64,000 bases of DNA from Acidobacteriaceae bacterium. Its GTDB lineage: Bacteria; Acidobacteriota; Terriglobia; Terriglobales; Acidobacteriaceae. Location of the stretch: assembly GCA_049977105.1 (NCBI GenBank), contig JBMFGX010000014.1, forward strand, positions 9,686 through 73,685, in the 5' to 3' direction. Below are positions 30,428-58,984 of this stretch, piece by piece. A program made the position numbers and the translations under genes. The stretch's first letter is position 1. Each line of letters starts with the position of its first letter. Under the pieces are notes generated by a model that was not told where the DNA came from, ran no database searches, and worked only from the letters and a program-made list of their open reading frames with translations.

Positions 30428-30443
30428 AGTGATTGAAATCACA
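30428..30443. promoter_or_regulatory. CRP-type box AGTGATTGAAATCACA
   Basis: GTGAT-N4-ATCAC palindrome, 9/10 to TGTGA-N6-TCACA. It sits immediately upstream of the aaggag RBS of Crp/Fnr gene 1. Confidence 0.5.
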
Positions 30444-30454
30444 AGGAGCCATCT

Positions 30455-31192
30455 TTGGCATGGCAATTGCTATCTCTTCAGCAGATAGAACTTATGGAGA
30501 AACCAATGACCAGATGCCAATTTTGCTCGCACACCGGAAAGCACGCCTTCTGTAGTCTTGGCCAGCAGTCCCGCGCCTTCTTTGAATCCCATTCGGTCAG
30601 CATGGAATATCCCCGCGGCACGGTCCTGTTTCGTGAAGGCGACCGTACCGAGGCAGTGTATGTGCTCTGCTCCGGGAAGATAAAGATCTCTACCAGTTCC
30701 AAAGAAGGCCGCACCATGATCCTGCGCATCGCGGATGCAGGGGACGTTCTGGGCATGAGCGCGGCGCTGACCGACGGAGAACATGAAGTCACCGCGGAAT
30801 CGCTTGAGCCATGCGTCGCTCGCGTTCTGCCCGTCAAGCATCTTGCCACCATGTTGCAGGCCTATGGCGATGCCAGCATCGGCGCGGCGAAGTCTCTGGC
30901 GCAGGACTATCGCGCCGCGTTTGATGAAGCGCGGCTGGTCGCTCTGCCTGGATCTCCAGCCGCGCGACTGGCGCGATTGATCCTGGACTGGACCGACGAG
31001 GCCAGGAAGAACTCATCCGCAGTCATCACGATGCCGTTGACCCATGAAGAACTCGCCTCCATGACCGCAACCACCAGAGAGACCGTCACCCGCACCCTCA
31101 GCCGCTTTCGCAAGGACAAGATCATTGCGATTCGAGGCGTGTCGCTCACCGTGCTCCAGCCCACCATGCTCGAAGAGCTCTCGGCTTGCTAA
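30455..31192 (+). CDS. Crp/Fnr family transcriptional regulator 1 (Cys-rich, FNR-like sensor; CRP-like recognition helix)
   Basis: cNMP-binding-fold core (GTVLFREGD...VYVLCSGKIKI...GRTMILRI..GDVLG). HTH LTHEELASMTATTRETVTRTLSRF. N-terminal C-x2-C-x8-C (CQFCSHTGKHAFC) plus a Cys in LEPCVARV. Start is either the TTG at 30455 (5 nt after aaggag) or a downstream ATG at 30494/30506. Confidence 0.88.
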   Translation: MAWQLLSLQQIELMEKPMTRCQFCSHTGKHAFCSLGQQSRAFFESHSVSMEYPRGTVLFREGDRTEAVYVLCSGKIKISTSSKEGRTMILRIADAGDVLGMSAALTDGEHEVTAESLEPCVARVLPVKHLATMLQAYGDASIGAAKSLAQDYRAAFDEARLVALPGSPAARLARLILDWTDEARKNSSAVITMPLTHEELASMTATTRETVTRTLSRFRKDKIIAIRGVSLTVLQPTMLEELSAC

Positions 31193-31303
31193 GCAAGCCC
31201 TGCTCGCTGCATAAAGAATCCCCGGGGAAAGCCTGCGCTGCCCGGGGATCGCCCTGCCGTTTGGTCTTCAGCCGTTCGGTCTTTAGCTGCCTGGTCTTCA
31301 AGC

Positions 31304-56500: not shown

Positions 56501-57209
56501 GCGCCTGGAAAAAGACGTCGGGATTCTGCGCCGTGCCACGAAGAATCGGCCGATCCGGCGAAAGCGCATTCTGCCGAAACGCAATCAGATACTTGTCGTC
56601 CAGCAGCGCGCGGATGGTCTCGTCGCTGATCGGCTCAATCTTCCCAATCTCGTGCGAGGTGCGGAAGCCGTCAAAGAAGTGGATAAACGGAATGCGCGAC
56701 TCCAGCGTGGCGATCTGCGCCATGGTCGCCATATCGGCTACCTCCTGCACGGAGTTTGAAGCCAGCATCGCCCATCCCGTCGCGCGGCAGGCCATCACGT
56801 CAGAATGGTCGCCAAAGATTGAAAGCGCGTGCGTGGCCAGCGTGCGCGCCGCCACGTGCATCGTCGCCGGCGTCAGCTCCCCGGCGATCTTGTACATATT
56901 CGGAATCATCAGTAGCAGACCCTGCGAGGAGGTAAAGGTGGTGGCAAACGCCCCCGCCTGCAAGGCCCCATGCAACGCGCCCGCCGCGCCACCTTCGCTC
57001 TGCATCTCTTCCACAACCGGCAAACCACCCCAAATGTTCTTCTTGCCTTCAGAAAGCCACTGATCGGCCCATTCCGCCATCGGTGACGACGGGGTTATTG
57101 GATAGATCGCCACAACTTCTGAAAGTCGATAGGCCACGGATGCCGCTGCCTCGTTCCCGTCCATAATCGCGGTGGGATTCATAGTCTTCTGTTCACTCAT
57201 TCGCTTCAC
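53556..57209 (-). CDS. nifJ: pyruvate:ferredoxin (flavodoxin) oxidoreductase, single-polypeptide PFOR
   Basis: 1217-aa ORF. MDGNEAAASVAYRLSEVVAIYPITPSSPMAEWAD, two ferredoxin-type CxxCxxCxxxCP clusters (CIQCGKCVMVCP, CTGCGVCVEACP) and the TPP-binding GDGW..D region. Confidence 0.95.
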   Translation of the reverse strand: MKRMSEQKTMNPTAIMDGNEAAASVAYRLSEVVAIYPITPSSPMAEWADQWLSEGKKNIWGGLPVVEEMQSEGGAAGALHGALQAGAFATTFTSSQGLLLMIPNMYKIAGELTPATMHVAARTLATHALSIFGDHSDVMACRATGWAMLASNSVQEVADMATMAQIATLESRIPFIHFFDGFRTSHEIGKIEPISDETIRALLDDKYLIAFRQNALSPDRPILRGTAQNPDVFFQAREACSPYHAAVPGIVQSVMDRFAKLTGRSYHLFNYYGARDAERVIVLMGSGAEAAEEAIDALARQGEKVGMVKVRLYRPFDAKAFLAALPATVKSIAVLDRCKEPGSAGEPLYADIQTVLAENAADLPFAMPTVIGGRYGLSSKEFTPAMVKGVLDELQKAAPKNHFTIGINDDVSHSSLDYDPQFSTEDPKTIRALFYGLGSDGTVGANKNSIKIIGSQTPNYAQGYFVYDSKKSGSMTTSHLRFGPDPIRSTYLITQASFVACHNFSFLEKMNVLEAAMPGAVFLLNSPFAADEVWQKLPRTMQQELIEKKIEFYVIDGYKVAREVGMGTRINTIMQTCFFAISGVLPKDEAIAQIKNAIKKTYGKRGEAVVEKNYAAVDHALAHLHKVTAPSVADSSFDLVGAFSPQAPGFVHDVLGKMAEGKGDLLPVSAIPAGGTFPTGTAQWEKRNIAQFIPVWEKDLCIQCGKCVMVCPHAVIRAKVYSPELGEGAPASFQWAKPKWKGMEDQRYTLQVAPEDCTGCGVCVEACPVKSKSDASKKAINMAPQEPLRVQERENWEFFLKLPEVDRAKISHTQVKDLQLLQPLFEFSGACAGCGETAYIKLLTQLFGDRLYISNATGCSSIYGGNLPTTPYTANGQGRGPTWSNSLFEDNAEFGYGMRAALDQQKIFAETLVKRLEATIGSELVHELLHAPQATEAEIEQQRERVKALRAKLAGDNSSDARNLLAIVDSLVRKSVWILGGDGWAYDIDLGGLDHVLGSGKNINVLVLDTGVYSNTGGQASKSTPRGAVAKFAAGGKRNSRKDLAMEVVSYGNVYVAQVAMGSNDTQVVKAFQEAEAHDGPSLIIAYSSCIAHGYDLVHSLEQQKLAVQSGYWPLIRYNPALIETGNNPFQLDSKAPSVRLKEYAYREARYTMLARSNPDLAAKLLEEAQGDVERVWRIYSARATMPGRGETPNIAPPEKSKESQETGAAVAAGGLK

Positions 57210-58226
57210 TCCACGGCGCGGCTTGTGGAAGGTTCGGCCGCTAGCCTAAGTCTCCAGACTCCGACGCCAAAACGCAGTGACGCAAGGCACAGAAGGAGCG
57301 CTATAGAACCTGCCACAAACCCACATCCCCCTCCCGCATGCAGATCCGCCTCCTCTGCACAAAGAGCCCACTGACCCGTCACCACGCAGATCCTCTCCCA
57401 GAGCTCCGCACAGCGGATTCCCGCCAACTCCTGCCGGCCGGAGTGACTGCGGAGAACCCCAAAACTCCATACGCCACGCTCACCCAGCATCCACCCGGCA
57501 GATTTCACGCCAACCTCGCTCTCTTCTGTCCGGAACCAGCCAGGGACGATCGCCCATTTGCCCGGCCGTGCAGGTTCACCCCAATTCCAGACCATCCGCC
57601 AGACGGCGCGGTAACCGAACGCTGCACCCGTTGGCCTTGGTATGGTTTCAAGGGGCTGGAGCAAGGCTTAGGAAGACTACAACCGCACCCGCAGCCCAAT
57701 GGCGGAGTCCACAAGCGTGATGCGCTTCCTAGACATCCAGTACCTTGTCCTCTAACATCAAGAAGGCAAGGTTCTGCGCCCTTCTGCTTGCGTTTGCGTC
57801 AGGCGAAGAGACAGCGTCCGGCCAGTACCTCCACCGTGTGATGTCATAACAGAGTCAGAAGGCGAACTTGCGACGGCAATTCAGTTCGTCATCCTTCTCT
57901 GCTCGGGAGCGATGTGTGCCTCAATCGGCCTATCACCAGAACCGCTATACACCGCACGCCCCTACGGAGTTTGGCAGGCCCATGCAGCTCGAAATCTCCT
58001 CGGAGCCAGGCAAACACAGCACACTGCCTCCTCCATCTCTCGACAAAGATTCCTTCGCACCCGGTCGTTCCTGGCCGGAGTCAGGCTTCCTTCCCGCTGC
58101 ATTTCATCCGTCAGGCACAAAACCCTTTACCGCCGGGCAGTTCATCCTGCCCAGAATGGACCAGTGCTCATGCAAAGTAGCCTTGTGACACGCACGACAG
58201 TAGGTAACGGAACAGCCGGAGAATCC

Positions 58227-58973
58227 ATGGTGGGGCTCAGCTCAAATAAGAAATCTTCTTCGCCCATAGGGCGCAATCGCGAGTGCTCCACTTGCGAACT
58301 GCGCTCCTTGCGCATGTTCTGCAATTTGAATCAAGCGGCGCTTGCCGATTTTCAGAAGCTCGGCGTCAAACGCTTCCTCCCCCGGGGTACACGTCTCTTC
58401 CAGGAAGATCAGCCAAGCACCGGCGTCTTTCTTCTTTGTACCGGGCAGGTCAAGCTGTCCTGCACCTCCAGAGAGGGAAAAACACTCATCTTGAAGATCG
58501 CGCTGCCCGGTGACGTGCTCGGCCTCGGCGCGGTCATCTCTGACACAAAATATGAGGTCACGGCGGAAGTGATCGAGCCGGCGGAGATCAAGAACATTCG
58601 CCGCCAGGAGTTCCTCGAGTTTCTCGAAAAGCATGGAGAAGCAAGCCTGCACGCCGCCAAATCCCTCTCCGAAGAGTACAAAACAGCCTTCTTCGATGCC
58701 CGCCGCCTGGCTCTATCCGGTTCAGCCGCAGAACGCTTGGCCTCAGTCTTCCTCGATTGGGCGCGGACAGCCTCCTGCGGAAAACCAGAGATGCGCTTCA
58801 CCATGGCCTTGACGCATGAAGAACTCGCCAACATGGTGGGCAGCTCGCGAGAAACCATCACTCGCGTCATCAGCAAATTCAAGCGCGACAAGATCATCCA
58901 GATCCGCGGCGCATCCATCATCGTTCTCGATCCACTCAAACTGGAACAGCTCGCCTCCATGCAACTGCTGTGA
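58227..58973 (+). CDS. Crp/Fnr family transcriptional regulator 2 (paralogue of regulator 1)
   Basis: ggaga RBS before ATG 58227. N-terminal C-x2-C-x8-C (CSTCELRSLRMFC), a cNMP-fold core (GTRLFQEDQ...VFLLCTGQVKL...GKTLILKI..GDVLG) and HTH LTHEELANMVGSSRETITRVISKF. The upstream part of the ORF-track entry was trimmed. Confidence 0.85.
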   Translation: MVGLSSNKKSSSPIGRNRECSTCELRSLRMFCNLNQAALADFQKLGVKRFLPRGTRLFQEDQPSTGVFLLCTGQVKLSCTSREGKTLILKIALPGDVLGLGAVISDTKYEVTAEVIEPAEIKNIRRQEFLEFLEKHGEASLHAAKSLSEEYKTAFFDARRLALSGSAAERLASVFLDWARTASCGKPEMRFTMALTHEELANMVGSSRETITRVISKFKRDKIIQIRGASIIVLDPLKLEQLASMQLL

Positions 58974-58984
58974 TTTAGATCACG
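58969..58984. promoter_or_regulatory. CRP-type box TGTGATTTAGATCACG
   Basis: GTGAT-N4-ATCAC palindrome, 9/10 to the CRP consensus. It overlaps the stop codon of Crp/Fnr gene 2 and lies ~420 bp upstream of the usp gene. Confidence 0.4.

Follow-up and report, generated by a model that had tools for sequence, protein, structure and literature searches.

In bacteria, regulons built on Crp/Fnr boxes are well known and represent a standard regulatory switch. We analysed a stretch of 64,000 nucleotides (the window) from an Acidobacteriaceae bacterium (GenBank assembly GCA_049977105.1, contig JBMFGX010000014.1, positions 9,686 to 73,685 of the forward strand), which encodes two Crp/Fnr-type regulators (Crp/Fnr-1 and Crp/Fnr-2), a PAS-domain histidine kinase, a response regulator, an NtrC-type activator, a cytochrome operon, a large multihaem protein, Usp, and acetate kinase (ackA). 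Eight short palindromes, here called boxes, lie in the same region (Table 1). These boxes are probably operators for dimeric Crp/Fnr regulators, seven of them in predicted class II positions and one at a predicted sigma-54 promoter. Crp/Fnr-1, Crp/Fnr-2, or both could be the binder, because the recognition residues R-E-x-x-x-R are common to both. An earlier sequence-only reading of the window had predicted Crp/Fnr operators that co-regulate electron-transfer genes, and this prediction gains support from the enrichment of the motif, its N6 specificity, intergenic placement and conservation, the recognition helix of the proteins, and the distance between boxes and -10-like hexamers.

Motif, placement and conservation

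The pattern GTGA-N6-TCAC occurs nine times in the window, compared with 0.86 times in dinucleotide-preserving shuffles, and none of 100 shuffles reached nine. The strict form GTGAY-N4-RTCAC occurs eight times (0.21 expected), and all eight centres are noncoding. According to the curated gene map, which was made with a home-made codon-bias caller and Pfam and in which some small genes are uncertain, 80.6% of the window is coding; placement of all eight sites in the remaining 19.4% has a probability of about 2e-6. A weight matrix trained on related loci only, with the window sites not used, gave eight best window matches of 16.3 to 21.4 bits, again all with noncoding centres. The ninth match and those below it followed after a gap, were coding, and scored 14.2 bits or less. 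Positions 1-28474 of the window contain no GTGA-N6-TCAC match.

All six sites listed in the sequence-only reading were recovered where it had placed them, but the list was incomplete: the boxes at 28475 and 62005 are also credible, giving a total of eight, and a loose match at 38832 had been missed as well. Its chance estimate of about 0.06 for a 10-nt pattern agrees with the shuffle value for GTGAT-N4-ATCAC, which occurs five times in the window against 0.05 expected. This longer GTGAT form is nothing special. The consensus of 43 sites from related loci is tGTGAYnnnnRTCACa, and over 86 half-sites from these relatives position 5 was C in 40, T in 45, and A in none; any pyrimidine is found there.

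Other matches were set aside. The one at 38832 (GTGATGGGTTTCAC), among the low-scoring coding matches, falls within the coding sequence of cytochrome b, and its position 10 is T, where trusted sites carry a purine; it breaks the Y/R rule (pyrimidine at position 5, purine at position 10) and is probably a chance occurrence. Ahead of the PFOR gene, a site at 57277 (GTGACGCAAGGCAC) is a weak candidate only: its core has a single mismatch, and a -10 element is missing at the expected offset. The matches at 7252 and 9065 are intergenic and weaker, with imperfect cores.

Related loci were anchored on Crp/Fnr genes and included six loci with called genes (65-92% coding) and 80 metagenome loci (L009-L088, 621.5 kb); all 88 loci amount to 785 kb. 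Homologues of Crp/Fnr-1 gave 526 matches, the close ones being 228-229 aa in length, and the closest genome is a Granulicella metagenome-assembled genome (L001) with 91% protein identity in Crp/Fnr-1. The six loci with called genes have 36 GTGA-N6-TCAC sites, 35 of which are intergenic. They are typically located 65-130 bp upstream of genes encoding Usp, alcohol dehydrogenase, nitroreductase, multihaem cytochrome, or NiFe-hydrogenase; phosphoketolase-ackA, P-type ATPase, and Crp/Fnr genes also follow them. Comparison of intergenic with coding DNA, which had been suggested as a check, found the sites near-exclusively intergenic in both the window and 86 related loci.

Operators of the Crp/Fnr superfamily are palindromes with two half-sites of 4-5 bp at a fixed spacing, 14-16 bp in all. 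Spacing is specific in the 80 metagenome loci, where N6 gave 142 matches compared with 4 for N4, 15 for N5, 4 for N7, and 3 for N8, and permuted palindromes gave 1-18. The Y/R rule holds for 120 of the 142 sites. By crude open reading frame (ORF) calls, 99 of these 120 are noncoding, and most of the other 21 are only a few bases from ORF starts that the calls had extended too far. Two of the permuted palindromes, TTGA-N6-TCAA (18 matches) and GTCA-N6-TGAC (17), are mildly above the others (1-6) in these loci, and they may serve other Crp/Fnr paralogues with different half-site specificity.

Phylogenetic footprinting, another suggested check, found boxes kept in related loci while flanks and spacers diverge. 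An equivalent of box 1, with its centre 3-10 bp past the kinase stop codon, is present in L001, L003, L004, L006, L007, and L008, and the spacers differ. Box 3 and the next 40 bp are conserved in L001 with a single base different in the spacer, and box 17502 of L001 is ~127 bp from a homologous small ORF, the same distance as for box 5. L001 keeps boxes where the flanks diverge. The module of kinase, response regulator, activator (minus strand), and crp/fnr-1 is conserved in L003, L004, L006, L007, and L008.

Gene order in this island is rearranged among close relatives, with boxes retained. The block of crp/fnr-2, small ORF, Usp, and ackA (window 58084-61604) is inverted in L001 and is directly beside the kinase-activator-crp/fnr-1 module, and in that genome the radical-SAM gene and the cytochrome operon are separated by an insertion of ~3 kb that carries a box of its own (14453).

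Box-to-promoter geometry and the crp/fnr-1 promoter

Class II Crp/Fnr activators are positioned at about -41.5 and class I activators at about -61.5. Among 35 gene-oriented sites, 15 have a -10-like hexamer TAnnnT beginning 22-23 nt past the box, compared with about 0.4 per other offset. When the metagenome set was scanned in both directions, offsets 22 and 23 together had 33 TAnnnT hexamers against a background of about 1.8 per offset. A second peak of 15 hexamers at offset 44 occurs because eight tandem box pairs have starts exactly 22 bp (two helical turns) apart (Table 1). With the hexamer assigned to -12 to -7, box centres are at -41.5 or -42.5, and the distal box of a tandem pair is at -63.5, which would seat paired dimers at about -63.5 and -41.5. 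No canonical -35/-10 promoter was found in the region 28400-35400. This layout is consistent with class II Crp/Fnr-dependent promoters, as predicted from the -10-like hexamers. At seven window boxes, the box would stand in place of the -35 element of an activator-dependent promoter, with its centre at about -41.5 to -43.5, and the bound dimer would recruit RNA polymerase by the class II mechanism.

Some individual promoters have further features. The -10-like hexamer of box 1 is TAACCT (28511-28516), 22 nt after the box. In four genomes (window 28511-28525, L003 ~8026-8040, L004, and L007), the GTG start codon of the response-regulator gene is exactly 6 nt past this hexamer, and the mRNA may be leaderless. 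Box 3 faces the radical-SAM gene rather than the NMO-like gene because its hexamer points there, leaving a leader of ~330 nt. Blocks between the box 3 promoter and the radical-SAM start (32950-33305), such as GATGGCAAGTGGTTATGGTTGACAAGGATGGCATGG, are strongly conserved with L001, and this region may hold a leader element or small RNA. Box 4 is downstream of a terminator-like hairpin at ~34540-34570.

Box 2 has a different setting. The sequence-only reading had placed it against the ribosome-binding site (RBS) of crp/fnr-1, having taken an AAGGAG and a TTG codon for the RBS and start. Its neighbour is in fact a conserved sigma-54-type promoter, and the start codon is the ATG at 30506, in agreement with the orthologues, which begin MTRC and have GGAG (30496-30499) ahead. 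When seven genomes are aligned, four conserved blocks stand out from the diverged DNA that separates them: a palindrome, the box (AAGTGATTGAAATCAC), TTTGGCAYGGCGATTGCYT, and the RBS. The third block, TTTGGCAYGGCGATTGCYT, matches a sigma-54 -24/-12 element and is exactly 12 bp past the box. In all 28 distinct orthologous upstream regions the box is followed by TTGGC-N7-TTGC. The gap is 12 bp in 24 of the 28, the GTGA/TCAC core is perfect in 18, and the GG-N10-GC spacing is kept across crp/fnr-1 orthologues. The predicted transcription start is ~30482, which puts the centre of box 2 at about -46.5. Use of sigma-54 at crp/fnr-1 is predicted from context and from the consensus, GG-N10-GC in surroundings resembling TGGCAC-N5-TTGCW, and no sigma-54 promoter was found beside any other window box.

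The conserved palindrome upstream of box 2 has arms ACCGCGTTGGGTGAAATGGCGCAG and CTGCGCTATTTCACCCAACGCGGT, and its core ATATGGCGCA is conserved in the seven genomes. Its centre is at about -108 from the predicted crp/fnr-1 start. It is likely the enhancer, or upstream activating sequence, for the divergent sigma-54 activator. The PAS kinase and NtrC-type activator would presumably fire the crp/fnr-1 sigma-54 promoter through this palindrome, and a Crp/Fnr dimer at box 2 would feed back on crp/fnr-1 through a bend in the DNA that separates the enhancer from the promoter. This feedback could have either sign, the site being half a helical turn from the -51.5 position at glnAp2.

The sequence-only reading had also proposed that the boxes serve the regulators' own genes, which is supported for crp/fnr-1 with box 2 and not for crp/fnr-2. 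Nothing convincing was found upstream of crp/fnr-2: a weak match at 58185 is not conserved in L001, and a conserved TGTGATGTCATAACA element at ~57838 is a half-site only. The box at 58970 is at the end of crp/fnr-2 as described, but it appears to serve the downstream genes instead of crp/fnr-2 itself.

A more ambitious model would join these elements into a two-tier low-oxygen or redox cascade, in which the kinase and sigma-54 activator switch on an FNR-like regulator having CRP-type specificity and a set of cysteine ligands not described before (C-X2-C-X8-C together with a Cys in the beta-roll). The -46.5 box, locked 12 bp from the -24 element, would then be an obligatory IHF-like architectural element that closes a positive feedback loop. 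We consider this full model doubtful. If it is true, the architecture around box 2 would represent a novel mode of action among Crp/Fnr proteins, unlike the simple repression at glnAp2.

Regulator proteins and competing explanations

Regulators of the Crp/Fnr superfamily have a cNMP-binding-like beta-roll at the N-terminus and a Crp-type helix-turn-helix at the C-terminus. Both proteins encoded here have cNMP_binding and HTH_Crp_2 domains, and they match Pfam PF00027, PF13545, and PF00325 above cutoffs. Their recognition helices, TTRETVTR in Crp/Fnr-1 and SSRETITR in Crp/Fnr-2, were aligned with SRETVGR of CRP and TVETISR of FNR from E. coli. In 120 orthologues R191, E192, and R196 are invariant, and they align with R180, E181, and R185 of CRP. 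It is accepted that TGTGA is recognised through R, E, and R at positions 1, 2, and 6 of this helix (PMC5701242), and the predicted R-E-x-x-x-R helix fits the GTGA half-sites.

Both proteins have an N-terminal C-X2-C-X8-C motif. In the 120 Crp/Fnr-1 orthologues C4, C7, C16, and C55 show little or no variation; C55 is in the beta-roll and has no FNR counterpart. A cysteine near the position of FNR Cys122 is present in Crp/Fnr-1 and 98 of the 120 orthologues and absent from Crp/Fnr-2. Residues E72, R82, and S83, with which CRP contacts cyclic AMP (cAMP), are replaced by M, H, and E in Crp/Fnr-1 and by L, Y, and E in Crp/Fnr-2. Neither protein reached the NCBIfam equivalog cutoffs for FixK, Fnr, CRP, or NtcA; scores were 47-57 bits for CRP (NF008732, cutoff 266) and 54-65 bits for Fnr (NF008365, cutoff 228). 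Relatives in PDB, among them CRP of M. tuberculosis, FNR of A. fischeri, and CRP of E. coli, are equally distant (~1e-12). Judged by these sequence comparisons, both are superfamily members outside the named subfamilies, with an FNR-like cysteine motif and a predicted CRP-like DNA specificity. The signal is plausibly low oxygen or redox, sensed via C4, C7, C16, and C55.

The site of E. coli CRP is TGTGA-N6-TCACA. The boxes described here resemble E. coli CRP and its class II promoters in the GTGA-N6-TCAC core, the R-E-x-x-x-R helix, and the predicted -41.5 position replacing the -35 element. They differ in that the cAMP residues are not conserved, an N-terminal cysteine motif is present, position 5 is pyrimidine-only, and the regulon would concern stress and electron transfer rather than carbon catabolism. 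FNR of E. coli and Aliivibrio is a [4Fe-4S] oxygen sensor with ligands Cys20, Cys23, Cys29, and Cys122; it recognises the box TTGAT-N4-ATCAA with E209/S212/R213. Likenesses to FNR are the N-terminal C-X2-C...C, the Cys122-like residue of Crp/Fnr-1, and the predicted class II activation of anaerobic and respiratory genes. The half-site here is GTGA and not TTGA, Arg replaces Val208 and Thr replaces Ser212, the cysteine spacing is X8 compared with X5 in FNR, and the fourth invariant Cys is C55.

Three other systems are informative. In Bradyrhizobium FixLJ-FixK2, a PAS kinase and response regulator switch on a Crp/Fnr-type gene, with feedback on that gene, and the regulator controls microoxic genes through palindromic boxes (PMC9104804). 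The acidobacterial system differs in its NtrC-type sigma-54 activator and its sigma-54 promoter with a built-in box; FixK2 itself has no cysteine motif and binds TTGA-N6-TCAA. HcpR1 of Desulfovibrio (PMC5701242) is a non-cAMP regulator with the CRP-type R, E, R helix, a TGTGA-N6-TCACA box, autoregulation, and redox or nitrosative-stress targets. HcpR1 is thought to use haem, however, no hcp gene is associated with the boxes here, and the similarity is at the superfamily level only. CRP at the sigma-54 promoters glnAp2 (-51.5; PMC1865078) and Pu (PMC3900584) also binds as a dimer between the enhancer and the -24/-12 element, where bending can modulate contact between activator and polymerase. 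In contrast to these promoters, the box of crp/fnr-1 matches the consensus strongly and is centred at about -46.5, a distance of half a helical turn from -51.5; it would be autoregulatory and has a spacing evolutionarily fixed across 28 loci.

Other identities of the boxes and their regulators have to be weighed. The boxes could be operators of the NADH-sensing repressor Rex, which governs genes of fermentation, hydrogenase, and respiration and whose sites are similar to those of CRP. The targets (alcohol dehydrogenase, hydrogenase, ackA/phosphoketolase, and cytochromes) resemble Rex regulons, and in Desulfovibrio a Rex site can be the same as an HcpR1 site (PMC5701242). The Rex consensus is TTGTGAA-W4-TTCACAA (PMC2883068), whereas none of the 86 half-sites has A at position 5 and GTGAA-N4-TTCAC does not occur in the 88 loci. 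There is also no Rex-type protein among the called genes of the loci, the fixed -41.5 geometry without a -35 element suits an activator over a repressor, and boxes precede Crp/Fnr genes in 28 orthologous loci. Rex is a very improbable candidate. We regard it as equally hard to believe that the boxes mark a carbon-catabolite regulon under orthologues of CRP that depend on cAMP. The box is near the E. coli CRP consensus, the helix reads RExxxR, and homologues carry the source annotation 'cyclic AMP receptor protein'; on the other hand, the cAMP-contacting residues are replaced, the CRP equivalog cutoff is missed, and both proteins have the FNR-like cysteine motif, invariant in orthologues. The targets, moreover, are Usp, cytochromes, and hydrogenase rather than sugar catabolism.

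Even when bound by Crp/Fnr proteins, the boxes might be mainly repressor or roadblock sites, occluding a -35 element or stopping read-through, instead of class II activator sites. The boxes at 28475, 58970, and 62005 overlap the stop codons of upstream genes, and box 2 is between an enhancer and a sigma-54 promoter, as is CRP at -51.5 when it represses glnAp2 (PMC1865078). The overlaps have another explanation, however, because GTGA contains TGA and the intergenic regions are compact. A -35-like hexamer after the boxes is absent, and the sharp box-to-(-10) distance and the 22-bp tandem pairs are hallmarks of activation from -41.5 and -63.5. Repression as the main function is unlikely, although it is possible at individual sites, especially box 2. 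Finally, the palindromes could be RNA hairpins or copies of a dispersed repeat, and GUGAY-N4-RUCAC could indeed fold with a 5-bp stem and 4-nt loop. The stem bases are invariant and do not covary, only the loop varies, no T-run follows the palindromes, and the flanks have no similarity, which rules out copies of a single element. The predicted transcription start is downstream of most boxes, and there is no Rfam match in the window. An RNA or repeat origin is scarcely credible.

Operators for Crp/Fnr activators are our preferred identification, and several points weigh against it. TAnnnT is missing from the expected offset in about half of the sites; the hexamer of the box at 44844 is at offset 24, and the box at 62005 has CAGCCT instead of TAnnnT. 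The -10 elements match the consensus only weakly, and little is known of acidobacterial promoters. The recognition residues do not distinguish the two paralogues, and the true binder could be another Crp/Fnr paralogue encoded elsewhere in the genome. A structure model of Crp/Fnr-1 (mean pLDDT 87.5) is least confident at the N-terminus, where the cysteine motif lies and where the first six residues are of low confidence, and cofactor binding is beyond the model. The list of targets is biased to Crp/Fnr neighbours, given the anchoring of the loci.

Targets and significance

Table 1. Positions of genes, boxes, and promoter elements in the window, with tandem box pairs of related loci.
Feature	Position	Strand	Remarks
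Double-PAS histidine kinase	26841-28478	+	Pfam; stop codon TGA
Single-domain response regulator	28523-28957	+	GTG start; Pfam/NCBIfam
NtrC-type sigma-54 enhancer-binding response regulator	28954-30324	-	Sigma54_activat, REC, HTH_8 domains; divergent from crp/fnr-1
crp/fnr-1, 228 aa	30506-31192	+	ATG 30506, RBS GGAG 30496-30499; cNMP_binding and HTH_Crp_2
NMO-like gene	31304-32794	-	Pfam/NCBIfam
Radical-SAM/SPASM gene	33306-34496	+	Pfam/NCBIfam
Cytochrome operon	35018-40420	+	Small secreted ORF, two cytochromes c, multihaem cytochrome, cytochrome b, NapC-like protein
Multihaem protein, 1096 aa	41432-44722	-	Start 44722; barrel-like C-terminus
PFOR and DHODH-like gene	52543-57209	-	Pfam/NCBIfam
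crp/fnr-2, ~248 aa	58227-58973	+	Start inferred; C-X2-C-X8-C, helix SSRETITR
Small Zn-ribbon-like ORF	59030-59210	+	Frameshift near 59125; C-terminal half conserved in other frame
Usp	59405-60319	+	ATG 59405
ackA	60806-62008	+	Pfam/NCBIfam
Small Cys-rich ORF, 64 aa	62063-62257	+	C...CPPLIVLA; GAGGAGG RBS; 51 bp after box 62005; unannotated
Box 1 GTGATGGGGGTCAC	28475-28488		Overlaps kinase TGA stop; upstream of response-regulator gene
Box 2 GTGATTGAAATCAC	30429-30442		Divergent region, sigma-54 activator gene / crp/fnr-1
Box 3 GTGACATATGTCAC	32931-32944	+	-10-like TATGGT 32967-32972
Box 4 GTGATAACGATCAC	34718-34731	+	Distal promoter, cytochrome operon; -10-like TATCGT 34755-34760, offset 23
Box 5 GTGATAACAATCAC	34885-34898	+	Proximal promoter, cytochrome operon; -10-like TATCGT 34921-34926, offset 22
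Box 6 GTGATGACCGTCAC	44844-44857	-	128 bp upstream of multihaem-barrel gene; -10-like TACTCT 44814-44819 minus strand, offset 24
Box 7 GTGATTTAGATCAC	58970-58983	+	Overlaps crp/fnr-2 stop; -10-like TACAGT 59007-59012, offset 23
Box 8 GTGATCGCCATCAC	62005-62018	+	Overlaps ackA stop; top matrix score 21.4 bits
Large palindrome	30349-30399		Arms 30349-30372 and 30376-30399, 24 nt each, 3-nt gap; 96% complementary
Sigma-54-type promoter TTGGCATGGCAATTGC	30455-30470	+	GG 30457-58, GC 30469-70
Tandem box pair, L002	8497/8519
Tandem box pair, L003	2550/2572
Tandem box pair, L010	5103/5125
Tandem box pair, L033	1697/1719
Tandem box pair, L050	11717/11739
Tandem box pair, L053	10894/10916
Tandem box pair, L055	211/233
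Tandem box pair, L072	1991/2013

The genes that follow the boxes suggest what the regulon may control. In the metagenome loci, 107 ORFs are downstream of boxes, including 21 for Usp, 21 for sigma-54 activators, 16 for Crp/Fnr proteins, three for ribosome hibernation factors, and two for phosphoketolases. In the window, the likely targets are the response-regulator gene for the box at 28475, crp/fnr-1 for 30429, the radical-SAM gene for 32931, the small secreted ORF and cytochrome operon for the pair at 34718 and 34885, the multihaem-barrel gene for 44844, the small Zn-ribbon-like ORF followed by Usp for 58970, and the 64-aa Cys-rich ORF for box 8.

Small proteins recur next to the boxes. Homologues of the 64-aa Cys-rich ORF follow boxes in L003 (~17394) and L033 (~2800). 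The Zn-ribbon-like ORF is intact in L001 (4738-4502, 79 aa, MVTHCANPVC...FFWLCPTC...), and it has homologues in L029, L002, L050, L053, and L085. Pfam and NCBIfam searches with the small ORFs and with a 152-aa and a 181-aa ORF gave no matches, and the Rfam scan of the whole window and the tRNA scan gave none either.

The 1096-aa multihaem protein has Paired_CXXCH, NrfB-like, and MtrC-like matches in its N-terminal part and a long C-terminal region of barrel-like composition without a Pfam match. L004 and L007 have a multihaem gene of ~310 aa and an unannotated gene of ~850-900 aa as separate neighbours, and the 1096-aa protein may be a fusion of these two. The ~850 bp between the promoter of the multihaem gene and bacA (44930-45780) has no convincing ORF and no Rfam or tRNA match.

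Acidobacteria are among the most abundant soil bacteria. Our literature searches turned up no Crp/Fnr regulon or motif for this group and almost nothing on how its transcription is regulated, and regulators go unmentioned in the main transcriptome study of these bacteria at low oxygen. Some originality can be claimed for the fixed composite of box and sigma-54 promoter, the 22-bp tandem boxes, and proteins that pair FNR-like cysteines with a CRP-like helix. The analysis offers a concrete and testable regulon, with a sharp motif (tGTGAYnnnnRTCACa), predicted promoters, and predicted targets. These targets include many Usp, hydrogenase, ribosome hibernation factors, phosphoketolase/acetate kinase, several unannotated small Cys-rich proteins, and multihaem cytochromes with a possible role in extracellular electron transfer. 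The motif could help to predict the acidobacterial genes that respond when oxygen is limiting in soils, and crp/fnr-1 provides a conserved promoter that would unite an enhancer, a Crp/Fnr box, and a sigma-54 core.

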